Shown piece after piece: positions 2,743 to 64,000 of a DNA stretch of 64,000 nucleotides (its first letter is position 1; every line of letters starts with the position of its first letter). The position numbers and the translations under genes are program-made. Source of the stretch: Desulfobacterales bacterium (lineage in GTDB: Bacteria; Desulfobacterota; Desulfobacteria; Desulfobacterales; UBA11574); NCBI GenBank assembly GCA_035529735.1, contig DATKWE010000114.1, positions 2,528-66,527 on the forward strand. Reading direction: 5' to 3'. The notes beneath the pieces were generated by a model. It was not told where the DNA came from. It searched no databases and saw nothing but the letters and a program-made list of their open reading frames with translations.

Positions 2743-2857
2743 AATTCCAAATAACAAATCCCAAAAAACAATCGCTTTGAAACGGTTTGGAATTTGGAAT
2801 TTGAGATTTATTTGTAATTTGGTGCTTGGGATTTGTGATTTAAGACACCAAATTCCA
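2743..2857. repeat. heptamer-periodic repeat block (TGGAATT TGGAATT TGAGATT ... TGGTGCT TGGGATT TGTGATT) with inverted copies (AATTCCA, AATCCCA) on its left side
   Basis: Read directly. Includes a 16-nt imperfect inverted repeat, AAATAACAAATCCCAA (2749-2764) with TTGGGATTTGTGATTT (2826-2841). Confidence 0.75.
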
Positions 2858-2948
2858 AGACATCGTCGGAGTGCTCTGACCCTCGATGCTCGGGTTCTTC
2901 GACGGACCCAAGAACCAGGTTTTTCAGGGTAAAATCAATATTTAAATA

Positions 2949-3464
2949 TTGGCTTATCTTATGGACTATGAATATTTCATGAAAAAGGCTTTAAACCAGG
3001 CAAGAAGCGCCTTATCCGCCGGAGAATTCCCGGTAGGATGTGTGGTGGTCCATGAAGACCGGATTCTGACAACCGGTGCCCGAAAGGGTACCGCCGGAAA
3101 TATCCCCAATGAGATCGACCATGCAGAAATGATTGCATTAAAGCGTCTGGCCGATTTGGATATCAATAGGGATAATAAGAGAATCGTCCTTTTCACCACA
3201 CTGGAGCCCTGTCTCATGTGCCTGGGGGCTCTGATTTTAAGCGGTATCAGCGAAATTGTTTATGCTTACGAAGACGTCATGGGCGGCGGCTTGAGCTGCG
3301 ATTTGAAAAATTTGATGCCGCTTTACAAAAACAGTCGAATCTCGTTTGTTCCGAACATCTTACGAAAAGAGAGCCTGGAACTTTTCCAGGCGTTTTTTAA
3401 TAATGCTGAAAATTCTTACTGGCAAGGAAGCCTTTTAGCAGACTACACACGCAGGCAACCATGA
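2949..3464 (+). CDS. CMP/dCMP-type zinc deaminase (nucleoside / tRNA-adenosine deaminase family)
   Basis: 171-aa ORF with the HAEM...EPCLMC zinc-binding signature. The start may be the ATG at 2961. Confidence 0.8.
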   Translation: MAYLMDYEYFMKKALNQARSALSAGEFPVGCVVVHEDRILTTGARKGTAGNIPNEIDHAEMIALKRLADLDINRDNKRIVLFTTLEPCLMCLGALILSGISEIVYAYEDVMGGGLSCDLKNLMPLYKNSRISFVPNILRKESLELFQAFFNNAENSYWQGSLLADYTRRQP

Positions 3465-35435: not shown

Positions 35436-36359
35436 TCAACCTGTTATGATTTTCAAAACATCGGGGATGATGCCAATGACAATCGGCAGCATGCCGGGCT
35501 GCTCCCCGTCAACATCGAGAAGTACCTGCTGGTTTGATAATGCTTCTACTTTTTCACCGGCCAGAGTAATGACTTTGTCAATATCATTTATTTTGCCGTT
35601 ATACAGTTTCGGAAGATTTAAAAAAATTTCAGGAATTGTCAGATCCCCGATGACCGTAACATTCAAGAGCCCGTCACAGACCGATGCACCCGGGGCGACC
35701 CACATTCCACCACCATGATACTGTCCGTTTGCAACCGCTACGTTCCAGACCCGCAATTCCTGTTCAAAACCTTCATCGACACGGATCCGTACCTTTTTCT
35801 TTCCATATAAAAAAATAGAAATGAGCGTTGCCCACATAAATGAAATAAACGGGCCCAACGCTTTGGTCGTCCGGTTGACCCGCCGGGCAACTTCACCGCC
35901 CAGACCGAAACTCGTAATATTATGGAAATATCGACGACGTTCATGACCCTCGTCATCTCGAAAAAACAGTACGCCCAAATCGATGGTTCGGACGGTGCCG
36001 GCAGCAATCAGATCGACGGCCTGTTCGAGGTCTTTGGGTATTGAAACGGTTCTGACGAAATCGCAGCCGGTCCCGTTGGGGATAAAACCCAGTGCCAAAT
36101 CCGACCTCACGGATGCTTCATGCATCATAATACCGTTAACAACCTCGTTCAGCGTACCGTCTCCTCCCACGCAGACGAGAAGCCTGACCTTTTGAGCAAG
36201 GGCATTTTTTACAAGCATTACCGCATCTCCAGGCCCTCGAGTCATATACGCCTCAAAAGGGCCCAGGCGATCTCTGGCAAGCCCTTCGATCATCGGCCAG
36301 TCCGATCCCGTTGAACCGTTTCCGGCATGGGGGTTGACGATAAAAGCGATCCTTGACAA
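35436..36359 (-). CDS. diacylglycerol-kinase-family lipid kinase (YegS/BmrU-like)
   Basis: 307 aa with the GGDGTLNEVVNG motif. TTG start 5 nt after AGGAG. Confidence 0.8.
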   Translation of the reverse strand: MSRIAFIVNPHAGNGSTGSDWPMIEGLARDRLGPFEAYMTRGPGDAVMLVKNALAQKVRLLVCVGGDGTLNEVVNGIMMHEASVRSDLALGFIPNGTGCDFVRTVSIPKDLEQAVDLIAAGTVRTIDLGVLFFRDDEGHERRRYFHNITSFGLGGEVARRVNRTTKALGPFISFMWATLISIFLYGKKKVRIRVDEGFEQELRVWNVAVANGQYHGGGMWVAPGASVCDGLLNVTVIGDLTIPEIFLNLPKLYNGKINDIDKVITLAGEKVEALSNQQVLLDVDGEQPGMLPIVIGIIPDVLKIITG

Positions 36360-47436: not shown

Positions 47437-48426
47437 TTAATCTTTTACGTTTATTGACGATCCCATAAGTTTTCGCGTTTTTCTCTTTGAAAAAAAATGG
47501 TGAATACCCACCAGAATCCCTTCAGGCAAAAAGACAAGTACCAGACAAAGAAAAATACCATATGCGATGACGTGATATTGTTTGGCGACATGAAGTGCTT
47601 CGGAAATAAAAGTGAGGATTCCTGCTCCGAAAAGAGAACCCCATAGACTCCCCATCCCGCCGACAATAACCATAGTCACCACCTGGATGGAATAATAAAA
47701 GTCGTAAGAACTGGGACTGATAAACGTAATGTAATGGGCATACAGACTGCCTGAAATAGATGCGAACATGGCGCTCAAGACAAAAACCTTTACTTTATAA
47801 TCGGCCGTATTAACACCCAAAGAGTTTGCTGCCACTTCACTGTCTTTAATAGCCCGTAATGCCCTGCCTACTCTGGAGTTGAGAAGATTTCTGGCCAATA
47901 GCATAAAAAGAAAAACAAAGCTCCAAATCAGGTAAAAATTTTTCAGGTCATTATCAAAGGCCAGACCACCGATAGCAAGCGGTGGTATCCCCATTAAACC
48001 GTCATGTCCCCCGGTGAACTGCTCCAACTCACCCATGAGAATATTGATAATGATACCGAATCCTAATGTCGCCATTACCAGATAGTGCCCCCGGAGCTTT
48101 AGGGATGGGTATCCGATCAGATATGCGATAGCTCCCGTTGCCAGCATTCCCGAGAGCATAGCAGGCCATAAAGGAAATCCGTAGTTTACGGTAAGTGTCC
48201 CTGAAAAGTAGGATCCGAGACCGTAAAATGCAGCATGACCCAATGAAATCTGTCCGGCAAATCCTATGAGCAGATTCAGCCCTACAACCACGATGGTGTT
48301 CAGACCGATCACGTTCAGAACAATAAAATAGTATTTGCTCTCAACAAACACCGGAATAACCATAATGATAACGGCTAGTATTCCGAAACAGAGGTTATCT
48401 TTTTGTTTTAAAAAAGAGTCCATCAA
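47437..48426 (-). CDS. livM: branched-chain-amino-acid-type ABC transporter permease (LivM family)
   Basis: 329-aa multi-TM ORF, last gene of the liv-like set. Confidence 0.8.
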   Translation of the reverse strand: MMDSFLKQKDNLCFGILAVIIMVIPVFVESKYYFIVLNVIGLNTIVVVGLNLLIGFAGQISLGHAAFYGLGSYFSGTLTVNYGFPLWPAMLSGMLATGAIAYLIGYPSLKLRGHYLVMATLGFGIIINILMGELEQFTGGHDGLMGIPPLAIGGLAFDNDLKNFYLIWSFVFLFMLLARNLLNSRVGRALRAIKDSEVAANSLGVNTADYKVKVFVLSAMFASISGSLYAHYITFISPSSYDFYYSIQVVTMVIVGGMGSLWGSLFGAGILTFISEALHVAKQYHVIAYGIFLCLVLVFLPEGILVGIHHFFSKRKTRKLMGSSINVKD

Positions 48427-48572
48427 TTTTCTTTTATGGTAACAGTTTGGTTATTTGAAACACGTCGACTTCAAACGAGCTTCAGCGATGATTAATTCAG
48501 ATGAATTTCGATGAAAATGACCCATCGCCATATATTTTCTTCAAGGCGATAATCCTTAACTGCTGAAATAAG

Positions 48573-49469
48573 CTAAACCCTTTCCGATTCTCCATACCCC
48601 ATAATTCCGGTAGGTTTTAAAAAAAGAACCAAAAGCAGAATGAAAAATGCGATGGCATCCTTATACTGAGAGGAGATCAGGCCTGCACCAAGCGATTCTA
48701 AAATACCCAGGAGTATTCCGCCTAAAATAGCACCCGCAAAGTGTCCATATCCCCCGAGAATAGCTGCTGCAAATCCCTTCAATCCCAACATGATGCCCGT
48801 ATCATAGGACGTCGAGGAAATAGGCGCTATGATCATTCCGGCCACCGCCCCCAACGCACCGCTGAAGGCAAACGAGAATAGGATCATACGATTAACGGAG
48901 ATTCCCGCCAAGGCCGCCGCCCTTCGATTTACCGCTGTTGCACGCATGGCCTTGCCCATTAATGTTTTTTTAAAAAAATAATGGAGCATCAGCATGACCA
49001 TCACGGTAATCGCAAATACCCAGATGTGCTGGGGCACTATGGCTGCTCCCCCCGGGAGATGAATCGGGTTTTCGCCGGAAAAGGCAGGGACACCGACATT
49101 GTCGGTCCCCCAGACCTGCTGAGCTGCACCCCGGAGAATTTCCGATAACCCGATGGTCAAAAAAATAAGCACGATGATCTCCTTTGACCGGGCATGCCGT
49201 ATCGGTCCTATCTCTATAAGGGCGCCGATAAGCGCAACCCCGGCCATGGATATGAAAAAGGAGATGATCAACTGGACTTTGAAAAGAACCACCAAAGAGT
49301 ACATAAACATTCCGCCAAGGGATATGAATTCACACTGGGCAAAATTGACAATTCCGGTGGCATTATGGATGATATTAAAGCCCATGGCCACAATGGCGTA
49401 TATAGAACCAACCGTTAAACCGGTGATAATATATTGGGCGATTTGTTGGGAAAAATCCATCATCATCAT
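48573..49469 (-). CDS. livH: branched-chain-amino-acid-type ABC transporter permease (LivH family)
   Basis: 298-aa multi-TM ORF with the typical QQIAQYIITGLTVGSIYA N-terminus. Confidence 0.8.
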   Translation of the reverse strand: MMMMDFSQQIAQYIITGLTVGSIYAIVAMGFNIIHNATGIVNFAQCEFISLGGMFMYSLVVLFKVQLIISFFISMAGVALIGALIEIGPIRHARSKEIIVLIFLTIGLSEILRGAAQQVWGTDNVGVPAFSGENPIHLPGGAAIVPQHIWVFAITVMVMLMLHYFFKKTLMGKAMRATAVNRRAAALAGISVNRMILFSFAFSGALGAVAGMIIAPISSTSYDTGIMLGLKGFAAAILGGYGHFAGAILGGILLGILESLGAGLISSQYKDAIAFFILLLVLFLKPTGIMGYGESERV

Positions 49470-49538
49470 CTTTTACTCTTCCCTCCCTTGATCTGTCGAG
49501 TTAGGAGAGGGAAGAGTTGAAGTGGTCGTGTTAACTTT

Positions 49539-50714
49539 CTAATCAAGCAGTTTCCAGCCCCCTTTGGTGGCCTTGATCATGACAATATCATCCATCGACA
49601 GACCGTTATGATCCTGCGGACTGATATTGTAGATGCCGCTGATGCCCACATAACCGGTGGTATTCTCGATGGCATCACGGATTTTGGCCCTGTCGGGTCC
49701 TACCTTTTTAATAGCATCCACAATGATGAGTGCCGCGTCCGCACCATAAGCGACCATCGTGCCGGGTTCTCGATTGAATTTTGTCTTATACGCCTTCACA
49801 TAGTCTATAATCATCTTTTTCTGGATGTCGTTGTCGGGAAGTTGATCACCCACGACAATCTTGGTAGAAGGCATCATCACGCCTTCACCGGCCTCCCCGG
49901 CAACCTTCCAAAAGATAGGATCTCCGGCACCATGGCATTCAAACAGCGGTGCTTGAATACCCAACTGTTTGACATTTTTAGCGATGATTCCCATAGCAGG
50001 ACCTACTGTCCAGGCAATGATTCCATCAACGCCCTTGGCGTTGATATGGGTCAACTGTACCGTCATATCCACATCTTTGGGCTGAAAGGCCTCTTGGGCA
50101 ACAATTTCTATGCCATACTTCGGTGCCTGAACCTTTACGTTTCTAAGACCGTCTTTTCCGAACCCTTCGTTGGAATAGATAAATCCTATCTTTTTGATGC
50201 CATGTTTGTTCATATACTGGCAGATTTTGCCCATTGCGTCTGCCGCCTTATACGGTGATTTAAACGTCCATTTCGGCAAAGAATTTGGATCTTTTTTATC
50301 GAGAGGCGCCATCAAAATAACATCCCCTCCTGAATGCATGAAGGCGGGAATCTTTTCCTTTTCAATAAATCCCCTCATGGCCATGGCCGTTCCGGTCAGT
50401 GTCGGTCCGATAATCGCCACCACGTCTTGGGATTCCAGAATCTTTTTCAAGGCCACCACAGCCTTGGTGGGATTGCTTTCCGTGTCTTCCATCACCATTT
50501 CCAGCATACGGCCATTAATGCCGCCTTGTTGATTGACTTCATCGATGGCAAGCAGTACGGCATCCTTCTGTGCTGTTCCAATATGGGCAGCACGGCCGGT
50601 CAAAGCAAAAATACCCGCGATTTTAATGGGTTCGGCACTATAGCAAATTGGTGATCCTAACATAAAACCGACTGTCAGAACCGCAATAACGATCATCAAG
50701 CATCTTCTTTTCAT
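49539..50714 (-). CDS. periplasmic substrate-binding protein (LivJ/K-type, ligand unknown)
   Basis: 391 aa with a signal-peptide-like N-terminus and a type I PBP pattern (IKIAGIFALTGRAA). Confidence 0.8.
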   Translation of the reverse strand: MKRRCLMIVIAVLTVGFMLGSPICYSAEPIKIAGIFALTGRAAHIGTAQKDAVLLAIDEVNQQGGINGRMLEMVMEDTESNPTKAVVALKKILESQDVVAIIGPTLTGTAMAMRGFIEKEKIPAFMHSGGDVILMAPLDKKDPNSLPKWTFKSPYKAADAMGKICQYMNKHGIKKIGFIYSNEGFGKDGLRNVKVQAPKYGIEIVAQEAFQPKDVDMTVQLTHINAKGVDGIIAWTVGPAMGIIAKNVKQLGIQAPLFECHGAGDPIFWKVAGEAGEGVMMPSTKIVVGDQLPDNDIQKKMIIDYVKAYKTKFNREPGTMVAYGADAALIIVDAIKKVGPDRAKIRDAIENTTGYVGISGIYNISPQDHNGLSMDDIVMIKATKGGWKLLD

Positions 50715-50787
50715 TTTTTTCCTCCTCGTGAATTTGGGGATACACTTCTCCGGTCATGATATACAGGCTTTTTTTCACCTCCCTTCT

Positions 50788-51528
50788 TTATCTTTTCGAT
50801 GACTTGGCATACGATCCCTTTCCCAGATAGGCCTTCTTTAATTCTACATCCTCAAGAAGATCCGCTGCGTTTCCCTGAAGCCGTATCTTTCCGGCTTCCA
50901 ATACATAAGCTCGATCAGAGATCTTGAGCGCCGCTCTCGCATTTTGCTCGACCAAAAGGATGGTGGTCCCCTCTTGCCTAAGTCTTTCAATAACAGAGAT
51001 AATTTCTTGCATCACAAGCGGTGCAAGGCCTAAGGACGGTTCATCCAGGAGCAAAAGGTGCGGCCTCCCCATCAACCCTCTGCCGATGGCCAACATCTGC
51101 TGCTCTCCTCCGCTAAGTGTTTCCGCTCGCTGTTTCAGCCGTTTTCCAAGAACAGGAAAAAGCTGTAATATATACTCAAAATCGTCTGATATTTCTTTCT
51201 TGTTTTGCTTCCCTCTCCGCCGATAGGCCCCTATCTCAAGATTCTCCTGAACGGTTAAAGGTCCGAAAAGATGCCTGCCTTCCGGAACTTGGATGATGCC
51301 CAGATTAACGATCCTTTCAGGAGAAAAGGATATGATATTTTCGCCTTTAAAAATTATCTTTCCATTGGATGGCCTGATAATGCCGGAGATAAGGTTTAAA
51401 AGTGTCGTTTTACCGGCACCATTTCCACCAATCAGGGCCAAAATTTCTCCCTCTTCTTGTATAAGCGTAATGTTATCGAGTGCCCGAACGCCGCCATAGT
51501 CGGCACTTATACCCTCCATTTTAAGCAC
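50788..51528 (-). CDS. livF: ABC transporter ATP-binding protein (LivF family)
   Basis: Walker A GGNGAGKTT, signature LSGGEQQ. Confidence 0.85.
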   Translation of the reverse strand: MLKMEGISADYGGVRALDNITLIQEEGEILALIGGNGAGKTTLLNLISGIIRPSNGKIIFKGENIISFSPERIVNLGIIQVPEGRHLFGPLTVQENLEIGAYRRRGKQNKKEISDDFEYILQLFPVLGKRLKQRAETLSGGEQQMLAIGRGLMGRPHLLLLDEPSLGLAPLVMQEIISVIERLRQEGTTILLVEQNARAALKISDRAYVLEAGKIRLQGNAADLLEDVELKKAYLGKGSYAKSSKR

Positions 51529-51534
51529 AGCCGC

Positions 51535-52317
51535 TTATAATTCCTTTCCCAGATAGGCGTCGATGACTTTAGGATTGTTCTGTATTTCTTTAGAACTCCC
51601 TTCAGCGATTTTTTTCCCATAATTTAAAACTGTAATCGTATCGGAAATACCCATAATTAGATTCATATCGTGTTCCACTAAAATAACGGTTATTCCCTTG
51701 TCCCTGATTTTGAGAATTGTGTGAGCCATTTCTTCGGTTTCCTGCGAATTAAGACCGGCCACCGGTTCATCCAAAAGAAGAAGTTTGGGTTCCATAGCCA
51801 GTGCACGGGCAATCTCCACCCGTTTTTGATCGCCATAGGGAAGACCGGCGACAAACACATCGGCCTTGGAATAAAGGTCTATAAACTTTAAAACCACATC
51901 GGTTTTTTGACGAATAATCTTCTCTTCTTTCCACACCATGGGGGTATGCATAAGACACCTTAAAAATCCGGAATGGCTCTGGGTATGAAATCCCACCATG
52001 ACATTTTCTCGGACGGTCATATTCTGGAAGACCTGTATGTTCTGGAAGGTTCTACCGATTCCCAAATGGGCCACCTGATATGGTTTTTTTCGATACAGTT
52101 TTTGGCCCTCAAATAAGATTTCACCGGATGTTGGCGGATATATGCCTGTAATCAGATTAATCGCTGTGGTTTTTCCAGCACCGTTTGGACCAATGATAGA
52201 AAAGATCAAGCCTTCCTCGACCTTGAAGGATAACCGGGTGACCGCCTGCAGTCCCCCAAAATTTTTAGAAATGCTATTTATTTCAAGGATGTAATTGGGA
52301 CGACTCACAACAAACAA
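51535..52317 (-). CDS. livG: ABC transporter ATP-binding protein (LivG family)
   Basis: Walker A GPNGAGKTT, Walker B LLLLDEP. Confidence 0.85.
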   Translation of the reverse strand: MFVVSRPNYILEINSISKNFGGLQAVTRLSFKVEEGLIFSIIGPNGAGKTTAINLITGIYPPTSGEILFEGQKLYRKKPYQVAHLGIGRTFQNIQVFQNMTVRENVMVGFHTQSHSGFLRCLMHTPMVWKEEKIIRQKTDVVLKFIDLYSKADVFVAGLPYGDQKRVEIARALAMEPKLLLLDEPVAGLNSQETEEMAHTILKIRDKGITVILVEHDMNLIMGISDTITVLNYGKKIAEGSSKEIQNNPKVIDAYLGKEL

Positions 52318-52388
52318 TGCTCCCCAATCCGTGCGCGGATCATTTAAAAGTTTTACGTTCTAATCCGGGTTATTCAAAAAAAGTCGCG

Positions 52389-53690
52389 TTAAACAGCGGC
52401 TGTATCGTTATTTCTTTGATCAAAGACCCGCCGGCTTTTTCGCTCTGTCCGCGGCAGGGATCCATAATCGACGATCTCCACCTGGCATCTTACCAGAATT
52501 TTGCGCCGGATCTCTGTTGCCACTTGTTCGGCCAATAGATCATCATCTGCGTTTTTCGATCCTGCTTCCCGTTCCACCTTAATAAGCATCATATCCCGTC
52601 CGCTTTCACGCTGTTTGAGATATATCTGGAATTCACTGCCGATTCCGTCAAGGCGGCTCAAAACATGATCGATCTGGCTCGGATAGATATTGACAGCCTT
52701 GTAGATGAACATATCATCCGTGCGGCCGAGGATCCGGTCATGCATGGGAAACGGTGAACCGCAGGGACACGCCCCATCCATAATGCGGGTAACGTCATAG
52801 GTGCGGTAGCGAATCAACGGGCTGCCCTCTTTGCACAATGTCGTTACGACAAGCTCGCCCTGTTGGCCGGCGGAAACCGGCTTTAATGAAACCGGATCGA
52901 GAATTTCAAAAATAAAATGGTCGGCCCAGTAATGGATGCCATTGTGAAGATGGCAATCGAGCCCCGTTCCCGGGCCGTAAAGTTCCGTCAATCCATAAAT
53001 ATCAAAAACATGGTCCACCCCCATCAGTTCTTTTATGCGCGCTCTCATGGCATCACTGTGGCGTTCCGCCCCCAGGATAATCTTTTTGACCTTTATTTCA
53101 GACAAGAGGCCGCGTTTATGAATCTCTTCTGCCATGAGCAATGCCATGGATGCAGTGGAACAGAAAACGGTCGTCTCCATATCCACCAACATTTCACAGT
53201 GCATATCCGCATTGGCCGGACCCAGGGGCACCGCCATGGCACCGAATCTTTCACAGCCGGCCTGAAACCCGACGCCGGCGGTCCACAAGCCGTATCCCAC
53301 GGCGATTTGAACCCGGTCTTTGCGGGTTAAACCCGCTGTTTCATAACACCGGGCAAAAATATTGGCCCACACATCAACATCTTTTTGTGTGTAGCAGAGC
53401 ACCTTTCGCTTCCCCGTCGTCCCTGAAGAGGCATGAATCCGAACGATGTCTTCAAATGGAACGGAACGCAAAGGAAAAGGGTACTCTTTCTGAAAATCAT
53501 CTTTATCGGTAAGGGGCAGGTGTTGGATATCATCGAGAGAGCGGATATCTTCGGGTTTAATGCCTGCGTTGTCCAGTTTTTTACGGTAAAAGGGTGAATT
53601 GTTATACACGTGGCCCACGGTCCATTTAAGGCCTTCGAGCTGGATCTTTTTTAATTTGTCTTCAGTTAAATCTTTAGGGATAAAACTCAT
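52389..53690 (-). CDS. paaK: phenylacetate--CoA ligase family (aryl-acetate:CoA ligase)
   Basis: 433 aa, PaaK-like, with the SSGTTGKRKV AMP-binding motif. Confidence 0.85.
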   Translation of the reverse strand: MSFIPKDLTEDKLKKIQLEGLKWTVGHVYNNSPFYRKKLDNAGIKPEDIRSLDDIQHLPLTDKDDFQKEYPFPLRSVPFEDIVRIHASSGTTGKRKVLCYTQKDVDVWANIFARCYETAGLTRKDRVQIAVGYGLWTAGVGFQAGCERFGAMAVPLGPANADMHCEMLVDMETTVFCSTASMALLMAEEIHKRGLLSEIKVKKIILGAERHSDAMRARIKELMGVDHVFDIYGLTELYGPGTGLDCHLHNGIHYWADHFIFEILDPVSLKPVSAGQQGELVVTTLCKEGSPLIRYRTYDVTRIMDGACPCGSPFPMHDRILGRTDDMFIYKAVNIYPSQIDHVLSRLDGIGSEFQIYLKQRESGRDMMLIKVEREAGSKNADDDLLAEQVATEIRRKILVRCQVEIVDYGSLPRTERKSRRVFDQRNNDTAAV

Positions 53691-53837
53691 GATAAACTCC
53701 TAACGTTACATCGATACAACATGTTGGCGCTTTGAAAAAATACTGCATTCAGATACGCCGGTCTCCAACGGCTCCAACAGAGACCCGCTTAAAAACCGGG
53801 CCATCGGAATGTTTGTCGGACGCGTTTTTTCACAGAA

Positions 53838-54413
53838 CTAAATTTCATTAAACCCTGTTTCAAGCGCCGTTATGGCATCGCCCAGCATCTTTTTTTTACC
53901 TGCCAGAATTTTTTCAAGAACCGCTTTTAGATCCTCTAAGGAGCAGAAAAGACGGTTTTCGACCGCTTTTGAAACAACGCCAAGGGTAAAACCGAGCAGG
54001 ATCAAGTTAACGGACTTCGGTTGTTGAATACGCTGTGCCAGTCCATCCGCATCCACAGCAAACACCGACGGTTCAGAACCCTGAACAACATCTTCACGAC
54101 GGTTCACAGCAGCCCAAGCATCGGGCTTCAGATAAAAACCGTGCTGGCTTAAACCGCCCGCTTTTAATGCCAGCAGACCGTCCGCATTGGCGGGTCGTAT
54201 CAAGGGGCTGGAAAAGTTCCCCACTTTAAGGTGTGATAAAACCGTTCCGCCCCGCTGGGCCATGCCGTGGGTTTCCGAGGTAAAGACTGAAAATCCCTTG
54301 ATAATTGCCGCCTCTGCCAGAAGACGCGTGACAAAAAGGACGCCCTGGCCGCCCACGCCGCTGATAACAATCTGCTGTTTCATGGATCTGCTCATACTTC
54401 CGATTTTTCTCAA
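53838..54413 (-). CDS. iorB: indolepyruvate:ferredoxin oxidoreductase subunit beta
   Basis: 191 aa with the gamma-type 2-oxoacid oxidoreductase domain (ISGVGGQGVLF). Directly follows iorA. Confidence 0.85.
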   Translation of the reverse strand: MRKIGSMSRSMKQQIVISGVGGQGVLFVTRLLAEAAIIKGFSVFTSETHGMAQRGGTVLSHLKVGNFSSPLIRPANADGLLALKAGGLSQHGFYLKPDAWAAVNRREDVVQGSEPSVFAVDADGLAQRIQQPKSVNLILLGFTLGVVSKAVENRLFCSLEDLKAVLEKILAGKKKMLGDAITALETGFNEI

Positions 54414-54486
54414 TTGGGTCTATCTGGAAACCAACCTGTTTTAACAGGATAAAAGGTCGATCCGATATGCCGATGATTCCGAAAGC

Positions 54487-56325
54487 CTATTTCGTGCTTT
54501 CGGAAGGGTCGTTCCTCTTTTCTTTAATAGAATTTTTTGGACAAACACCCATGCATACGCCGCACCCATTGCACAAGATGGGGTCGATATTTACCTGCGC
54601 CCCTTCTTCATTCAAAACCAGCGCCGGACATTCAAAATGATCGACGCAGTAGGCGCAGCCGTCGCATTCATCTGAAACTTCGACCTGGATCGGCTGATGC
54701 GCCGGTTTTTCTTTTCTGAGCCGGTCAATCAGACAGGGATGCCTCGAAATAACCACCGCCGGTCCGTGCTTCCTGCTGTATTTTAACGCATCTTTAAGCA
54801 GGGATATAAATTCGTTCAGGTTGTAAGGGTCTTCGACGCGGCAAAATTTAACGCCGCATCCCTCGACCAGTGCCTCAATCTCAACAGAATTCAGCGACTC
54901 CCCGCCGGCCCCTATGCCCACGGCAGGTGTCGGCTGGTTTCCGGTCATTGCTGTGGTTCGGTTGTCAAGAATTACGAGTACGAAAGACACCTTCTGAACC
55001 ACCGCATCGATCAGCGCCGGGACGCCGGCATGAAAAAACGTCGAATCCCCGATGGTCGCCACAATGTCCGGTGGTTTTTTTTCATTCTTGAACGCATGGT
55101 AAAAGCCCGCCGCCTGGCTGACAGCAGCCCCCATGCAAAGGACGGTGTCCACCGCGCCAAGGTTTAGCCCAAGGGTGTAACATCCGATATCGCTGGGATA
55201 TATCCCCTTTGGCGCCGCCTTTTTAATGGCAAAAAACGCCGCCCGGTGGGGGCAGCCTGCACAGAGTGTCGGGCGGACGCCGGGGTCCGACGCACCATCG
55301 ATGTCCGCTGTGTCCATACCGGCAAACTCGCTGATGATCTTTTGGACGGTTTCAGGGAGAAGTTCTCCGACCCTGGGGACCGAACGGGTCAGCTTCCCTT
55401 TGATGCGATGACGATCCGCCAGCTGCATCTCAATGATTCCGGTGGTCTCTTCGACGACCAGAATCTCATCGTAGGTGTCGATCATGTGAGATATGAAATC
55501 TCCATGCAACGGGAACGGCTGCAGTACCTGGTACATGGGGATGCGGTCCCACAGATTTAGATCTTTCATGATTTCTTTGGCATGGCCTGCTGCCACACCG
55601 GATACGATCAGCGCTTTTGAAGCATTGGCCCCGGTATTGAGCCGGATCGGTGCTGTTTTCGGGTAGCCGGCAATGGCGTCGAGCTTTTTCTCCAGCGCTT
55701 GATGCAGATGAAACCGAAATTTAGGTGTCGCCGCCCACCGCGCAGGGTCTTTCTGGAAATGGATTTCCCTTGGATGCCACTCAATTTTTCCCGGTTGAAT
55801 ATCCTGTCTGGCATGACAGACTCTTGTGGTGGGACGCAGCATTACGGGAATCTCAAAAGCCTCGGATAGTTCGAAGGCTGTGGCAACCATTTCTTTTGCC
55901 TGCAGGGGAGAATCCGGATCGAGCACCGGGATCTTTGCCATCATGGCCATGAGCCTGCTGTCCTGCTCGGTCTGTGAAGAATGGGGTCCCGGATCATCCG
56001 CGCTGATCACCACGAATCCACCGATTACGCCAAGGTATGCCGCGCTCATCAGAGAATCGGATGCCACATTCAGTCCAACCTGTTTCATGCTGACGGCTGT
56101 GCGCAATCCGGTCATACTTCCTGTATAGGCAATTTCAAAGGCGATCTTCTCGTTAACCGCCCACTGAACGTGTCTCGGCATCGATTCTGCTTTTTGCAAA
56201 GCAGCAAATGAAGCGAGAATCTCGGAAGCCGGAGTCCCTGGATATGAGGTTGCCATTGTGCAGCCGTTTTCCATCAGACCCAGCGCAATTGCCTCGTTCC
56301 CCAGCATTAATTTTCGTTTGATCAC
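54487..56325 (-). CDS. iorA: indolepyruvate:ferredoxin oxidoreductase subunit alpha
   Basis: 612 aa with a GTG start. TPP-binding region (GDSTFFHAG) and C-terminal 2x[4Fe-4S] (CDGCAYCV..., CNGCGVCMGVCP). Confidence 0.9.
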   Translation of the reverse strand: MIKRKLMLGNEAIALGLMENGCTMATSYPGTPASEILASFAALQKAESMPRHVQWAVNEKIAFEIAYTGSMTGLRTAVSMKQVGLNVASDSLMSAAYLGVIGGFVVISADDPGPHSSQTEQDSRLMAMMAKIPVLDPDSPLQAKEMVATAFELSEAFEIPVMLRPTTRVCHARQDIQPGKIEWHPREIHFQKDPARWAATPKFRFHLHQALEKKLDAIAGYPKTAPIRLNTGANASKALIVSGVAAGHAKEIMKDLNLWDRIPMYQVLQPFPLHGDFISHMIDTYDEILVVEETTGIIEMQLADRHRIKGKLTRSVPRVGELLPETVQKIISEFAGMDTADIDGASDPGVRPTLCAGCPHRAAFFAIKKAAPKGIYPSDIGCYTLGLNLGAVDTVLCMGAAVSQAAGFYHAFKNEKKPPDIVATIGDSTFFHAGVPALIDAVVQKVSFVLVILDNRTTAMTGNQPTPAVGIGAGGESLNSVEIEALVEGCGVKFCRVEDPYNLNEFISLLKDALKYSRKHGPAVVISRHPCLIDRLRKEKPAHQPIQVEVSDECDGCAYCVDHFECPALVLNEEGAQVNIDPILCNGCGVCMGVCPKNSIKEKRNDPSESTK

Positions 56326-56386
56326 TTACTTCCTCTATAAATAACGGGCGGCCATATTCCCGTCCCCGGGTATGATTACAAGGAAC

Positions 56387-56421
56387 AAAAAAGCCAGTAC
56401 TTTTTGAAGAAGTGCTGGCTT
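56387..56421 (-). terminator. rho-independent terminator in the iorA leader (attenuator terminator)
   Basis: Minus strand: AAGCCAGCACUU-CUUCAAA-AAGUACUGGCUU (12-bp stem, 1 mismatch) ending in a run of 6 U. Lies 60 nt upstream of the iorA GTG. Confidence 0.8.
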
Positions 56422-56518
56422 ATAGTAAAAGAGCCATGAACCTCTTCAACGCCGACTGACGAAGCCGCTCACAGCTCTGGAATCAATTAATCTTGTGTTC
56501 AAAGGTGGTGAGCAAGCT

Positions 56519-56560
56519 TCATAATCTGTGCCACCACCAGCACCACAGTTCAAATTTCAT
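56519..56560 (-). CDS. putative Trp-rich leader peptide MKFELWCWWWHRL (22 aa if initiated at ATG 56587)
   Basis: ATG AAA TTT GAA CTG TGG TGC TGG TGG TGG CAC AGA TTA TGA, located between a promoter and a terminator. The SD is weak. Confidence 0.5.
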   Translation of the reverse strand: MKFELWCWWWHRL

Positions 56561-56613
56561 GATCGTTTCTCTGACTATGGATTTCATGTTTAAACGGTTT
56601 AAAAGAATATCTC

Positions 56614-56642
56614 CAATTATCTAAGTAAAATACATTTGTCAA
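56614..56642 (-). promoter_or_regulatory. sigma70-like promoter of the iorA leader (TTGACA, 17 nt spacer, TAATTG; overlapping GATAAT)
   Basis: Minus strand: cTTGACAaatgtattttacttagaTAATTGgag. Confidence 0.55.
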
Positions 56643-56778
56643 GCGCTTTCCCTATTTTCTCCTCCGGCCGGTTCTCTGCAATCCGGACCACACCGGCGGA
56701 TGGTGGGAAAGGCGCCATGGGCAACACCGCCCTTTTTCCCATCCGGCTGAGCAAGCAGCAGGTTACGTAGGATGACGT

Positions 56779-57234
56779 TTAATATCCCACGTAGTGAAAC
56801 GGCTCGATCTCGGAAAGCTCTTGGGGGGTGAGGGTTTTAAAGCCCGATGCTTTTATCACATCTTCAGCCCGCTCTGCGTCTTTGACATCCAGAACAAAGA
56901 CTGCATTTTTCCGGCTTTCTATGACAAACCCATAGCCATTTTCAATGTTGACATTTTCAGTGCAAAGGATCTGTAACAGTTCATCAAGTCCACCCGGACG
57001 ATCATCGATCAGCACCGTAATAATTTCTTTGAGTTCCACCGCAATGCCTTCTTTGCGGAGGGCCTTTTGGCCCTGTTTGGGGTTGTCTACAATGAGATTG
57101 ATAAACCCCGAATCGCCAAAAGATGATATGGTGGCCGACCGAATGTTGATCTTTTTCCGGGCAAGAATTGACGTAATTTGAGCCAGGATGCAGGGTTTGT
57201 TTTCTACCGGTATTGTAAGTTGATAGGCTTTCAT
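56779..57234 (-). CDS. ACT-domain protein (tandem ACT)
   Basis: 151 aa from MKAYQLTIPVENKPCILAQITSILA. The longer ORF-track start at 57474 would overlap the upstream gene. ACT proteins commonly accompany PaaK-like ligases. Confidence 0.7.
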   Translation of the reverse strand: MKAYQLTIPVENKPCILAQITSILARKKINIRSATISSFGDSGFINLIVDNPKQGQKALRKEGIAVELKEIITVLIDDRPGGLDELLQILCTENVNIENGYGFVIESRKNAVFVLDVKDAERAEDVIKASGFKTLTPQELSEIEPFHYVGY

Positions 57235-57451
57235 GGTTTTTTTTAAATTTCCCCATCCATCGAAAATCACGGGTTGTTTAATGTCTAAAATAAAGGATTT
57301 TATCCTGAAAATATAGAAAAACAACCGAAGCCTGTCAATATAATTCGAACACGGAACCCGGTTTGCGGACCGGCCGCAAACCGGCAGATGAAACACACCC
57401 ACATGAATATAAAAGTCAATCAGTTTGCGGCACAAGATTTTGAAACGGCTT

Positions 57452-58291
57452 CTAAGCAGCCACGAGATCCCCAAAGGCTCGCTTGAGTTTTGAGGTTATC
57501 GGACCCGGGTTGCCGTCACCCACGGCCCAGTCATTGACCCGGACAACCGGTACGATTTCAGACGTCGTACCCAGAACCATCAGCTCACTCGCTCCTGTCA
57601 ACGTTCTTTCTATAATCGGAGATTCCCTGAAAGGTATGCCCAAAATAACGCACAGATCCAGCACAACGCGCCGGGTGATTCCGGCAAGGATGTGATGGTT
57701 GGCAGGGTGTGTTACGAGCTGACCCTCAAACACGGCGCAGAAACTGGTATGTGATCCTTCGGTGATGACGCCGTCCCGAACAAAAACAGCTTCGGCCGCC
57801 CCCCGATCCTTTGCCTGCTGGCTGGCCAGCACATTCGGCAACAGTCCCACCGACTTGATATCGCATCGTCCCCACCGGAGGTCAGGGACAAGAATGATGG
57901 CAATCCCTTTCTCCCATTCCCCATGGGAAGGCCGGAGCACAGACGCAGATACATACACCGTCGGAGAAATCTCTATATCTGGGAATGCGTGCTTGCGCGG
58001 TGCTACGCCCCGAGTAATCTGGATATAGAGTGTCGCATCTTCATTTTCAAGATTGTTGCGCTGTAACACCTGATCCGCTACGGATTTGAGATCGGCGGGG
58101 GAAGCGGGCGCCATGTGGAGTTCACTCAAGCTGCGCATTAGACGCTCAAGATGATCATCGACTTTGAACAGCCTGCCGCCATACGAGCGGATTACTTCGT
58201 ATACACCATCGGCAAACAGAAATCCGCGATCGTCCGGTGATATCTTTATATCTTCTTTAGAAACGAACTGGCCGTTGAAATATGCTATCAT
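57452..58291 (-). CDS. class IV aminotransferase (branched-chain / D-amino-acid aminotransferase family)
   Basis: 279 aa with a fold-type IV pattern (DRGFLFADGVYEV...). Confidence 0.8.
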   Translation of the reverse strand: MIAYFNGQFVSKEDIKISPDDRGFLFADGVYEVIRSYGGRLFKVDDHLERLMRSLSELHMAPASPADLKSVADQVLQRNNLENEDATLYIQITRGVAPRKHAFPDIEISPTVYVSASVLRPSHGEWEKGIAIILVPDLRWGRCDIKSVGLLPNVLASQQAKDRGAAEAVFVRDGVITEGSHTSFCAVFEGQLVTHPANHHILAGITRRVVLDLCVILGIPFRESPIIERTLTGASELMVLGTTSEIVPVVRVNDWAVGDGNPGPITSKLKRAFGDLVAA

Positions 58292-60585: not shown

Positions 60586-62370
60586 TTACTCGGAATCCGG
60601 ATTGAGAAAATCCAGACTCAGCACCGCATCGATTTGCGCTCCCACAGGGTTCATCGATAGGGGCTGCAACCCTTCCACCTGTTGTTTTATTTCAGAAAAC
60701 GTTTTGCTCACAATTCTTCCGGATCCGGCAAACAAACGAACACATCCCTGAAAGACAAAGAAACTTAAAAACAGTGCGATGGCGATGGTCAGAAATGCGT
60801 GCAGAAAAAAATCGGAAGACAGATAATGCCCGGCAAAGTAATCCCGTGCGGTGGTCCAGCCCACATGAGCGAGTATGGCGATGACCGGCAGGTTGAAAAC
60901 CATCTGGAATATAAACCCGCTAAGGGTCTTGGAAGTCTTTTCCAGGGTATTGTCCAGGCAACGGTTCCAGAGGGCGGTCAGATCCCCGTCCAATGTGTTA
61001 TTGTCCGAAAGCGCATTTTTCATATGACGCACCGATGGGTTGAACCGGGCCTTGACCAGGGATTCGGCAACATCCGGCCACTCCTGCAAAATGGTCATCC
61101 TGTAACCGCGCATGGCGGCATCTACGCCATCGCTTTTGCCGGTCTCGGCCACCGCCGCCCGGGATTCCTTAAAATGCAGCAAAGAAGACACCATGCCCGT
61201 CAGCTGACGAATCGGGTTTCCGAATCTCAACATGGCCACCATACCGGTGCCAAAAATCATAATGCGCGCCCATAGGGCGATGAGCCATCCCACCGGCCCC
61301 AGCCAACGTTGTGCAAGTTTTTGATACAACAGGACATTTATGCCGAAAAACTGACCGGCGTTGTTGTCTTTGATTGCAAAAAGCGCATCCGCCAATGCCT
61401 TTTTTTCGGCGGACTGAATGCGCGTTTTTGCGTCTTCCAGCCCCTCGACATTTTTTTCGACTTCAGTTTCCGTCTCTTGAAAAACATAATCTCGCAAACT
61501 TCGGGCATTTTCGATCCGCCGGTCCACCACGTATCCAGGGCGATTGAAGGTACCGAAAATCATCTGCTGCAGGTCCTTAAATTGATCAAAGTCGTGCTTC
61601 GGACGCACCGCGGGGTCCCACTCGGGATTGCGCAAATGGCGGCGGGCGGAAATGCACAAGAGGGTTTGAACCGGTCTTTCCCAGGCGGCATTGATGAACG
61701 TTTTGAACTCCGGTACGATTTTTTCTTTGAGTTCGCCTTCATCCTGACGATCGCACTTGTTGATCACCACCACCAGAGAATCCCCGCCAAACAGGCGGAC
61801 ATAAGAAGCCAGAAAATCTATGTGATCTCTTCTTTTGGGATTTTCAGAATCGAAAACACAGATGAGTATGTCTGAAAGCGCGATGGCTTTTTGCACCACC
61901 GGGATGTGCGTTTCCTGTTCACTGCTGTCCGTATCCGGAGTGTCGATCAGTAATACATGGTCCAGCGTTTTTGCGGCTTGACTCGATCGAAACACGACAT
62001 TCTCCAGGCCGAGCTGCTCGCTCAACGGGTCGGCGTCTTCCTTTGCCTGGCTCAAAACAACGACGTTCCGGGTGGTGGGCCGATGATGCCCCACTTTGGA
62101 CAGACCGTCGACTTCAGCCAGTGCATTCAGCAGCGTCGACTTGCCGGATCCGCACGGACCGATGAGGGTCACCATGAGCTTGCGCTCGAACCGTTCTTCG
62201 AGATCACCCATCATGCGGAGGACTTCGCTGCACTGCTTTTTCAGCCCTGCCGCCGGCTGCCATAGGGGCGCCCGGTCAATGGCTTGGTGAAGCATGTGAA
62301 CGTCATTTTTGAAACCCTCGATCCTGCCGAGGGCCTTGATTGATTCTGTTTTTTGGTTTGAAATCATCAT
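60586..62370 (-). CDS. membrane-associated P-loop GTPase (dynamin-like / YfjP-type)
   Basis: G1 GPCGSGKST, G3 DTPD, G4 NKCD, with hydrophobic hairpins in the C-terminal half. The ATG at 62370 overlaps the upstream stop (ATGA); the ORF is open from 62526. Confidence 0.6.
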   Translation of the reverse strand: MMISNQKTESIKALGRIEGFKNDVHMLHQAIDRAPLWQPAAGLKKQCSEVLRMMGDLEERFERKLMVTLIGPCGSGKSTLLNALAEVDGLSKVGHHRPTTRNVVVLSQAKEDADPLSEQLGLENVVFRSSQAAKTLDHVLLIDTPDTDSSEQETHIPVVQKAIALSDILICVFDSENPKRRDHIDFLASYVRLFGGDSLVVVINKCDRQDEGELKEKIVPEFKTFINAAWERPVQTLLCISARRHLRNPEWDPAVRPKHDFDQFKDLQQMIFGTFNRPGYVVDRRIENARSLRDYVFQETETEVEKNVEGLEDAKTRIQSAEKKALADALFAIKDNNAGQFFGINVLLYQKLAQRWLGPVGWLIALWARIMIFGTGMVAMLRFGNPIRQLTGMVSSLLHFKESRAAVAETGKSDGVDAAMRGYRMTILQEWPDVAESLVKARFNPSVRHMKNALSDNNTLDGDLTALWNRCLDNTLEKTSKTLSGFIFQMVFNLPVIAILAHVGWTTARDYFAGHYLSSDFFLHAFLTIAIALFLSFFVFQGCVRLFAGSGRIVSKTFSEIKQQVEGLQPLSMNPVGAQIDAVLSLDFLNPDSE

Positions 62371-64000
62371 GATACCATCGCTTTTTCGCACGTCTCGATG
62401 CGGGTTTCGATCCCATGGATCAGCGGGTTTGAGGCGTCCAGCGTATCTGTTGCAGCCCGTATGATTCCGCCGGTGACCTCCTGTTCGAAAAGATCCTGTA
62501 CCGCTTTGAGCTTGTCGTTCAACCACGTTTTCACAATGGGGCCGAGCATCTCTTCAAGCTGCTTCTGATCGGCTTTTTTAAGCCCCGTGGTGGCGGGTAT
62601 CGCAACCAGTGCATACAGATCATGCAGCCCGAACAGGCCGGTCAGCTTGACCTTGATTCCCACGGCCCCCACGGGATCTCCGGTTGAAATGATATACGTA
62701 ACAGCCGCGGTGGCCGGAACAACATTCAAAAATGCGGCGAACATCTGCCGAATCTTGGTCCACATGCCCATTTTGCTTCGGTAACCGCCGGCCAGATCTT
62801 TCAACGTCATTTCGATGCCATGGGACAGCTCCACAATCACATCCCGGCGTGAAAGAATGGACTCGAGCACCGATTTCCAATCCATGCTCCGCAATTTTTC
62901 CTGCGCCTGAAACACAACCGGATGGGCGGAAACAAAGAAGGTCAGGGTCCCTTTTTCTTCGCCGGGCTCTGTATAAGGTCTTTCGGTGTTTTTCAGCACC
63001 TCGCCGGCTCTGATCTGTTCAAGGGTTTCAAGCATTCGCCGGGTGACCGGATCCTTCAGGGGCGCGTCGACGGATATGTCTGAATGGACCGCCGTGGAAT
63101 GGATGCTGTTTACGGCTTTGAGAAGATCTTCTTCCACCCGGTCGACAAAATCAGCGGGCGGTGCTGTTTTTTCAGTGTCGGAAAAAATCTGTTTTACCTT
63201 TTTTGCCGTGTCCACCAGTATTTTAAACGGGCGTTCGATAAGGCTGCCCGTTTTGCGCATGGCCTTGACATAGGGGGGGTCCGTTTCCATCCATATCTCG
63301 ACAAACCGCTTCATCACCCGATCCATGGGAAAATGCCGCAGCGCTTCTTGAACACAATGACTCTGGGCGGTCTGCAGCGTATCGAGATAAAAGCGCAGTT
63401 CATGGTTGGAAATTTTTGCATGTTCAAGGATTTCGGCGGCCTGGATCAACACATCTTTCAAAATAGAGGACAGCAATTCGAGTCTAATGGTGCCGGAATC
63501 GACGGCTGTAAGGGCCTCCATAAACGACGGATCTTTTTCATCGATGGACCGCAACGTCATGAATTTTTGGCCGGCCGCCACGGCATTATCCTCATCCGTA
63601 CGATAAATACCCAGCACATGACGATCGGCGTCGGCGCCGTATAAGTTGCCGGCAACGGTCATAGCGTGCCCTCGAACCTCTTCGTCCGAAAAGCTGGGAT
63701 AAACACGATAAATCAAAAAGCATTTCCGAATGCCGATGCCGGTGAGCATCTGGGCGATGAAATCGGTGTTCTCGCGATTGTTGTAGTTGGAATTGGTAAA
63801 AACATATATCAGAATATCGGATGCTTCCAGGGCTTGCCGGGTAACATCCCGATTGATGTATACGCCTTTGGCACCGGTATCAAAGTCCGGTGTGTCCATG
63901 AGAACCAGATTCCTGGGAACCGCATCGTTCAATACATAGAGCGGAGGACCCGACAGGGTGAGGTCCTGCTGGTTTTCAAGTCGGACGGGCCGATGCCCGA
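62367..64000 (-). CDS. second GTPase-like / dynamin-like protein, 5' end outside the window
   Basis: The frame is open to position 64000, reading ...LVLMDTPDFD (G3-like), so the P-loop must lie beyond the edge. A hydrophobic segment sits near the C-terminus. Confidence 0.5.
   Translation of the reverse strand, partial: GHRPVRLENQQDLTLSGPPLYVLNDAVPRNLVLMDTPDFDTGAKGVYINRDVTRQALEASDILIYVFTNSNYNNRENTDFIAQMLTGIGIRKCFLIYRVYPSFSDEEVRGHAMTVAGNLYGADADRHVLGIYRTDEDNAVAAGQKFMTLRSIDEKDPSFMEALTAVDSGTIRLELLSSILKDVLIQAAEILEHAKISNHELRFYLDTLQTAQSHCVQEALRHFPMDRVMKRFVEIWMETDPPYVKAMRKTGSLIERPFKILVDTAKKVKQIFSDTEKTAPPADFVDRVEEDLLKAVNSIHSTAVHSDISVDAPLKDPVTRRMLETLEQIRAGEVLKNTERPYTEPGEEKGTLTFFVSAHPVVFQAQEKLRSMDWKSVLESILSRRDVIVELSHGIEMTLKDLAGGYRSKMGMWTKIRQMFAAFLNVVPATAAVTYIISTGDPVGAVGIKVKLTGLFGLHDLYALVAIPATTGLKKADQKQLEEMLGPIVKTWLNDKLKAVQDLFEQEVTGGIIRAATDTLDASNPLIHGIETRIETCEKAMVS

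Follow-up and report, generated by a model that had tools for sequence, protein, structure and literature searches.

What controls the genes for indolepyruvate:ferredoxin oxidoreductase (IOR) in a Desulfobacterales bacterium, and to which signal do they respond? The question is raised by a 453-nucleotide (nt) gap at 56326–56778 in front of iorA in contig DATKWE010000114.1 (assembly GCA_035529735.1), of which we analyzed a stretch of 64,000 nt, referred to as the window. A preliminary description of the window reported that this gap holds no open reading frame (ORF) of 60 amino acids (aa) or more, which we confirm, and proposed a tryptophan (Trp) attenuator of the trpL type within it. Our analysis indicates that a ribosome-mediated transcription attenuator very probably lies in the gap, with charged tRNA-Trp as its signal and with iorAB, paaK and the genes of an ATP-binding cassette (ABC) importer under its control. 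All leader elements were read on the minus strand, in the region 56250–56850; iorA itself starts with GTG at 56325, behind AGAGGAAG.

We collected relatives of the leader in two ways. An IorA-anchored set with one genome per species comprises 80 Desulfobacterales-type loci in which IorA is 64–94% identical, from families that include Desulfobacteraceae, Desulfococcaceae, Desulfosarcinaceae and Desulfatirhabdiaceae. Simple inspection reveals a Trp-rich mini-ORF 140–460 nt upstream of iorA in 27 of these loci, and the leaders align well over ~190 nt. The covariance model R1, built from the aligned genome leaders, finds exactly one copy in the window (56388–56575, 189 bits) and matches 31/80 species loci, one of which, L016, has no Trp mini-ORF. 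The mini-ORF and terminator that the preliminary description proposed to look for upstream of iorA orthologues are thus conserved. The second source was a degenerate DNA pattern derived from the ior leaders and scanned on metagenome contigs. It returned at least 119 stretches, about 85 of them real leaders, and adds at least ~57 non-redundant leader copies. A joint model search gave 88 aligned copies, 85 of them distinct.

The leader ORF, MKFELWCWWWHRL followed by the stop UGA, lies at 56560–56519 and reads ATG AAA TTT GAA CTG TGG TGC TGG TGG TGG CAC AGA TTA TGA. The predicted peptide is 13 aa long, with Trp at positions 6, 8, 9 and 10 (codons 56545–56543 and 56539–56531). Its start codon falls in a common alignment column in 87 of the 88 leaders and is ATG in 82. 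The ORF is in frame with the UGG triplets in 86, has a length of 10–15 aa in 83 (most often 11–13 aa, mode 13 aa), and in 84 contains 3–5 Trp at approximately positions 6–10, with about three codons after the Trp run. In 74/88 the first base pair of a helix named B:C below reaches into the stop codon. Peptides such as LWCWWWHRL, LWWWWRKL, PWCWWWQKI, SLWCWWWQKF, CWWWWWQRP and ENWWWSAD illustrate that residues other than Trp vary freely across the 88 leaders, the Trp residues alone being conserved. No in-frame stops occur in the variable codons 2–5, and differences in the length of the Trp run among relatives are 3 or 6 nt, both multiples of 3. This pattern of conservation argues strongly for coding constraint on the mini-ORF. 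The W-rich ORF of the preliminary description is therefore present, with frame, Trp run and stop position conserved in 86/88 leaders; the 22-aa extension proposed from an ATG at 56587 is not, since that ATG is ATT in loci L001, L002 and L004 and the conserved start is at 56560.

The leader RNA contains six segments, A to F, that can pair in five successive combinations. Segment A (GGUGGUGGCACAG, 56538–56526) is the Trp-codon region and the 5' arm of helix A:B, in which it pairs with 56516–56504 (–15.5 kcal/mol by local folding; 87% paired in 85 sequences); the preliminary description had rightly proposed that CUCACCACC at 56512–56504 pairs with the Trp codons. Segment B (GAAGCUUGCUCACCACCUUUG, 56520–56500) starts inside the stop codon and pairs either with A or, as the first antiterminator, with segment C (CAGAGCUGUGAGCGGCUUC, 56479–56461), giving helix B:C of –22 to –23 kcal/mol. 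C can instead form the first terminator stem with segment D (UUGAAGAGGUUCAUGGCUCU plus UUU, 56449–56427): helix C:D joins 56478–56461 to 56447–56430 and is followed by UUU (–23.3 kcal/mol), a terminator-like hairpin with a U-run. D has segment E as its alternative partner (AAGCCAGCACUUCUUCAA, 56421–56404, which supplies the second terminator with its 5' arm and loop), and helix D:E, the second antiterminator, joins 56449–56432 to 56420–56404 (–18 to –21 kcal/mol). Here UUGAAGAG and UGGCU pair with AGCCA and UUCUUCAA; the earlier proposal that UGGCU and AGCCA sequester the 5' arm of the terminator agrees with the helix recovered by RNAfold. Finally, E pairs with segment F (AAGUACUGGCUU plus the U6 tract, 56402–56387), the 3' arm of the second terminator, in a local fold that spans 56421–56391 with the U tract extending to 56387. 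This hairpin, AAGCCAGCACUU-CUUCAAA-AAGUACUGGCUU, in which the last two U open the U6 tract at 56392–56387, is the weakest of the five (–12.1 kcal/mol). It had been described as a 12-base-pair (bp) terminator followed by U6; hairpin and U6 are where they were placed, but the stem has 11 pairs and one C·A mismatch. All elements of the preliminary description are found at their positions, but segment C had been missed, and the leader comprises six segments and two tandem terminators rather than four segments. The pairing of 56512–56497 with 56450–56440 that had been considered is unnecessary, as segment C bridges both. We also note that GUGCUGG in the Trp-codon region (56543–56537) could pair over a long range with its complement CCAGCAC, located in the 5' arm of terminator E:F (56418–56412). 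In one masked fold of the window leader this contact took the place of E:F; it is probably incidental.

The same helices are seen throughout the relatives. Among 82 distinct leaders, the median local energy is –16 kcal/mol for A:B, –21.6 for B:C, –25.7 for C:D, –17.8 for D:E and –16.5 for E:F, and each of the five local hairpins folds 2.4–5 standard deviations better than its own mononucleotide shuffles. Three or more U follow C:D in 77/82 distinct leaders, and L066, L073 and L030 have no other terminator than this one, with 7–9 U. At its core the leader is therefore a four-segment attenuator of the classical kind (A, B, C and D), to which most lineages, including that of the window, add a second terminator E:F gated by D:E. 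Intrinsic terminators (C:D with its U-run and E:F with U6) lie downstream of the mini-ORF and ahead of iorA; an antiterminator helix excludes the terminator, and an upstream helix over the regulatory codons excludes the antiterminator.

Pairing in both alternative states was compared with that in shifted registers. In the 28 genome leaders the termination set (A:B, C:D and E:F) is 88.6% paired, compared to 32–53% in shifted registers, and the read-through set (B:C and D:E) 84.9%, compared to 39–50%. In the 85 distinct leaders the corresponding values are 90.5% (shifted registers 33–58%), with 24/39 pairs changed on both sides, and 83.8% (34–49%). Because the alignment of 85 sequences had been fitted to the termination structure, bias is smaller in the read-through count than in the termination count. 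In the same 85 sequences helix 3 is 94% and helix 4 81% paired, and 10/11 pairs of these two helices show changes on both sides. Strands that serve two helices covary with either partner: B95/C142/D187 is U/A/U in 61, C/G/C in 10 and U/G/U in 9 sequences, and D185/E218/F255 is C/G/C in 45, C/G/U in 14 and U/A/U in 8. Judged from these alignments, terminator-state and antiterminator-state helices are both maintained with compensatory changes. The covariation that the preliminary description wished to see in relatives is thereby found in both helix sets, and together with the mini-ORF conserved in 86/88 leaders it supports the proposed trpL-type attenuation at Trp codons.

ORF, helices, conservation, covariation and terminators are carried by the sequence and its comparison with relatives, and from them we infer ribosome stalling, the order of folding and the direction of the response as follows. 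Transcription from a promoter at ~56642–56614 would start the leader RNA, in which segments A–F would allow five successive, mutually exclusive helices. When Trp-tRNA is plentiful, the ribosome would reach UGA and cover B, as at this codon it would occupy ~13 nt downstream, the whole 5' arm of B:C. With B covered, C would pair with D to give a hairpin followed by a U-run, E would pair with F to give a hairpin followed by U6, and transcription would end before iorA. Were the mini-ORF not translated, A:B would form first and the outcome would likewise be termination. When Trp-tRNA is scarce, a ribosome stalled on the UGG run, with a UGG codon in its A site, would cover A and reach at most the first bases of B. 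Free B would capture C once C is made, D would pair with E, neither terminator would form and RNA polymerase would enter iorA. That stalling at the Trp codons most likely favors read-through, with the operon on when tryptophan is short, follows from the topology once segment C is added, and offers an answer to a question that the preliminary description had left open. Minimum-energy folding of the window leader at growing lengths agrees with this direction. With a masking ribosome on the last Trp codon, B:C appears from 112 nt and D:E from 172 nt, whereas C:D and E:F are both absent; when the stop codon is masked in its place, C:D appears from 142 nt. Folding with and without masking, which had been suggested as a check, is thus supportive for the window leader and mixed for its homologues. 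Full-length masked equilibrium folding is not uniform across homologues and was not used as proof of direction. Because equilibrium folding is mixed in this way, the model needs co-transcriptional kinetic trapping of the first-formed helix, as other attenuators do.

The promoter itself is conserved. A –35 hexamer TTGACA (56642–56637), inside a conserved cTTGACAAA, is followed after a 17-nt spacer by a putative –10 hexamer TAATTG (56619–56614), which keeps the conserved TA spacing and is a poor match to TATAAT. The arrangement of cTTGACAAA, ~17 nt and TA precedes nearly all 88 leaders, in all three types of operon described below, and the distance from the –35 element to the mini-ORF is constant in nearly all of them, including the trpB2 and paaK leaders. 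At equal spacing, relatives have TAATTG, TAATGG, TATTTG, TATGGG or TATCAG. A consensus promoter and terminator scan of the window called neither the promoter nor either terminator, the terminators being missed because of the mismatch and the short U-run; we retain all three because they are conserved. The promoter of the preliminary description, TTGACA, 17 nt and TAATTG, is therefore at its position and conserved in relatives, but TAATTG is poor and not called by the scan. We consider the –35 hexamer convincing and the –10 hexamer atypical, and the transcription start is only predicted from them. The extended –35 element cTTGACAAA (56645–56637 in the window, ~80 loci) is unusually invariant although the downstream sequence has strongly diverged, and it could exceed a plain –35 role, for example as an operator or UP-like element.

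The leader does not correspond to a known RNA family. An Rfam cmscan of 56200–56900 with E up to 10 gave chance-level matches only (Thr_leader on the wrong strand at 16.5 bits with a cut-off of 55, and mascRNA), with no Trp_leader (RF00513), T-box (RF00230) or riboswitch, and no match at gathering score was obtained for the trpB2 and paaK leaders; readings as T-box, Trp_leader or riboswitch were rejected on these grounds. In architecture it resembles the enterobacterial trpL of E. coli (RF00513), with a short ORF that has consecutive Trp codons near its end, a stop beside the second segment, mutually exclusive 1:2, 2:3 and 3:4 helices, an intrinsic terminator and read-through predicted upon shortage of Trp-tRNA. 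It differs in having 3–5 Trp codons instead of two, six segments, two tandem terminators and a Desulfobacterales host, and in controlling iorAB-paaK-ABC, trpB2 or paaK-liv genes, whereas trpL controls trpEDCBA. The five-helix chain is shared with the his leader of Salmonella and E. coli, with A:B, C:D and E:F for termination and B:C and D:E for read-through; here the codons are for Trp and not His, and C:D carries a U-run in 77/82 leaders, giving two tandem terminators. The his leader was reportedly described as a six-segment attenuator, A:B to E:F, by Johnston and colleagues in 1980. The his-type six-segment topology is present as an architecture, with no homology implied. Trp-run leader peptides with terminator/antiterminator pairs are known outside γ-proteobacteria from comparative genomics, in Corynebacterium and Streptomyces (PMC1262725) and in front of Sinorhizobium trpE(G) (PMC6614838). 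Those attenuators, unlike the present one, control canonical trp genes or trpS and belong to different RNA families, and none has been reported before ior or paaK genes.

Which genes follow the leader in relatives bears on its physiological role. The first gene is iorA in at least 59 cases, usually followed by iorB, paaK, livG, livF, a binding-protein gene, livH and livM. In at least 13 cases it is trpB2, encoding a 458-aa TrpB-like pyridoxal phosphate enzyme (700 bits to NF009057, cut-off 366), and at least three of these continue as trpB2-iorA-iorB-paaK; trpB2 leaders include L091, L107, L165, L182, L087, L130, L174, L131 and L154. In at least 11 cases, including L108, L186, L123, L142 and L147, it is a paaK-like ligase gene with the same ABC transporter genes and without iorAB. 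No trpE follows the leader among the ~85 real metagenome matches listed, which is weak evidence that the canonical trp operon lacks it, as the search pattern came from ior leaders. TrpB2 is an indole-salvaging, tryptophan synthase β-like enzyme. Induction by Trp starvation, as the switch predicts, would suit an operon that probably imports indoleacetate or related aryl acids for Trp synthesis. Indoleacetate or a related aryl acid would be imported, the PaaK-like ligase would form indoleacetyl-coenzyme A (CoA), IorAB would reductively carboxylate this to indolepyruvate, and transamination would yield Trp, while TrpB2 would in parallel turn indole into Trp. We favor salvage because the Trp-forming trpB2 is under the same leader and because of the Trp-shortage logic of the switch. 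The link to Trp made in the preliminary description is thus supported, but is more likely anabolic than catabolic, since the leader also precedes trpB2. For Methanococcus maripaludis, PMC4162585 documents, citing Porat et al., an anabolic use of aryl acids through IOR. Taken further, these genes may form a Trp-starvation regulon of the Desulfobacterales (trpB2, iorAB, the paaK-like ligase and the Liv-type importer) in which IorAB works reductively and Trp is made from scavenged indole and indoleacetate, instead of or beside the chorismate pathway; we regard the chances for and against this wider proposal as evenly balanced.

Several observations weigh against a starvation-induced attenuator with an anabolic purpose. 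The Shine–Dalgarno sequence of the window leader is weak (AGAGA), and a strict core is present in 35/88 leaders. The E:F stem contains the mismatch described above, D:E is weak (above –10 kcal/mol) in 12/82 leaders, for example L055 and L059, and the –10 hexamer matches the consensus poorly. The unmasked full-length window leader prefers the read-through fold at equilibrium, and many homologues keep the terminator fold as their minimum-energy structure even with the Trp codons masked. L016 lacks the Trp codons, so the sensor is not universal. Finally, the IOR and PaaK gene set fits aromatic catabolism as well, and the anabolic reading rests on regulatory logic and co-regulation with trpB2, which tip the balance. 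The gene set, the usual annotation of IOR as a catabolic enzyme of aromatic amino acid fermentation and the equilibrium fold of the unmasked leader would all suit an operon induced by Trp abundance, in which Trp is degraded via indolepyruvate. The precedent for such control is tnaC, likewise a Trp-responsive leader peptide before a Trp-related, non-biosynthetic operon. TnaC, however, senses free Trp in the ribosome through one critical Trp residue, depends on Rho and is induced by Trp excess, whereas the present leader has 3–5 Trp codons, intrinsic terminators and the opposite helix logic, namely read-through with the ribosome on the Trp codons and termination with it on the stop codon. The TnaC-type arrest motif W-x3-D-x7-P is absent from the 13-aa peptide, the Trp-forming trpB2 carries the same leader, and established biochemistry gives no need for an AMP-forming aryl-acid CoA ligase in catabolism starting from Trp. 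We therefore consider induction by Trp excess very unlikely.

The weak Shine–Dalgarno sequence might also suggest that the UGG repeats are not translated at all and act as an RNA element, either as a helix arm or as a site for a TRAP-type protein, with the ORF incidental; the Trp-codon run is indeed an arm of A:B, and pairing alone would conserve part of it. Pairing would not account for a start column fixed in 87/88 leaders, UGG triplets consistently in frame, a fixed stop position, the lack of in-frame stops in codons 2–5 and indels only in multiples of 3. TRAP-regulated trp leaders of Bacillus have 9–11 (G/U)AG triplets spaced 2–3 nt apart, and the present leader has no run of even three; nor is there an Rfam match to a riboswitch or T-box. 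An untranslated element thus seems extremely improbable. The same low probability attaches, in our estimate, to a functional small Trp-rich peptide or a trans-acting leader small RNA like peTrpL or rnTrpL, with cis control of iorA secondary. Sinorhizobium provides a precedent (PMC6614838, PMC7298713), and the leader, once terminated, would amount to a stable, structured RNA of ~190–220 nt. Conservation, however, is confined to the Trp residues and the length of the ORF, the other residues being free, and covarying alternative helices that overlap terminators are what cis attenuation predicts. A trans role would in any case add to the cis mechanism and not replace it.

A literature search found no leader peptide or attenuator described before ior, paaK or trpB2-type TrpB-like genes, in keeping with the preliminary description, which knew of no such leader for ior operons. 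The δ-proteobacterial regulon paper of Rodionov et al. 2004 (PMC545781) has no tryptophan section. The mechanism is a classical one. Neither the RNA family nor its regulon appears to have been described, as there was no Rfam match and no paper in the literature searched. New features are the RNA family (85 distinct sequences), its lineage, a double-terminator layout in a Trp attenuator and the regulated genes, which lie outside the canonical trp operon. As a case of classical leader-peptide attenuation it leaves the general view of regulation unchanged, and the surprise lies in what is regulated and what this implies for IOR. Attenuators are hardly charted in the Desulfobacterales, and the leader offers a compact six-segment, double-terminator model for attenuation outside enterobacteria. 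Annotations routinely assign IOR together with a PaaK-like ligase to the catabolism of aromatic amino acids, and a Trp-starvation switch shared with trpB2 argues instead for salvage from indole and indoleacetate. The direction of the pathway becomes directly testable, and the switch is relevant to auxotrophy for amino acids and to cross-feeding among sulfate reducers of sediments. If the reading is true, the leader would itself annotate the function of an enzyme for which the physiological direction is usually no more than a guess.

The operon predicted to be regulated extends over 47437–56325 on the minus strand, and its gene order after the leader is the same in relatives. Pfam and NCBIfam assign iorA (IOR alpha, 54487–56325), iorB (IOR beta, 53838–54413), a paaK-like AMP-forming ligase gene (52389–53690), two ABC ATPase genes (51535–52317 and 50788–51528), a Peripla_BP_6 binding-protein gene (49539–50714) and two permease genes (48573–49469 and 47437–48426), in agreement with the iorAB, aryl-acetate-CoA-type ligase and ABC importer genes named in the preliminary description. 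The closest solved relatives of the binding protein are annotated as "putative leu/ile/val-binding protein", "putative ABC transporter substrate-binding protein" and "extracellular ligand-binding receptor" (E 1e-31 to 1e-25), and E. coli LivJ is far more distant (E 5e-11). Several of these solved relatives we take to be aromatic-acid binders, which serves as a lead only.

Upstream of the leader, at 56779–58291 on the minus strand of the window, Pfam and NCBIfam identify an ACT-pair protein and a class IV transaminase of the D-amino-acid type. The ACT-pair gene lies directly upstream on the same strand in the closest relatives (IorA >92% identical). The transaminase gene precedes it in the window and in loci L001 and L159; in L002, L004, L089 and L170 the ACT gene alone was detected, and more distant loci that bear the leader showed no trace of either gene upstream. 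In the ORF list the ACT gene has a TTG start and a 23-nt overlap with the transaminase gene, and it probably starts later, because the ACT domains begin at residue 81. Two other TGGTGGTGG sites in the window, at 35707–35715 and 61767–61775 on the minus strand, lie inside long ORFs (35436–36359 and 60586–62526) and gave no match to the covariance model; the run at 35707 is read as Gly codons, and both sites are unrelated to the leader.

Two variations among the relatives deserve mention. In L016 (Desulfonema magnum 4be13, NZ_CP061800.1, leader 2763–2975) the promoter, C:D and E:F are kept before iorA, and the Trp mini-ORF and A:B region are replaced by a near-perfect hairpin of ~30 bp (leader –88.7 kcal/mol, z = –8.7). 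The hairpin may be an insertion or a different sensor, and constitutive termination is predicted for this leader. In L012 (~2760–3000), L018, L036 and L055 an additional 100–350 nt separate the second terminator from the start of iorA. Part of this sequence is shared by L012 and L018; it could represent a small mobile element or a further region of regulation.

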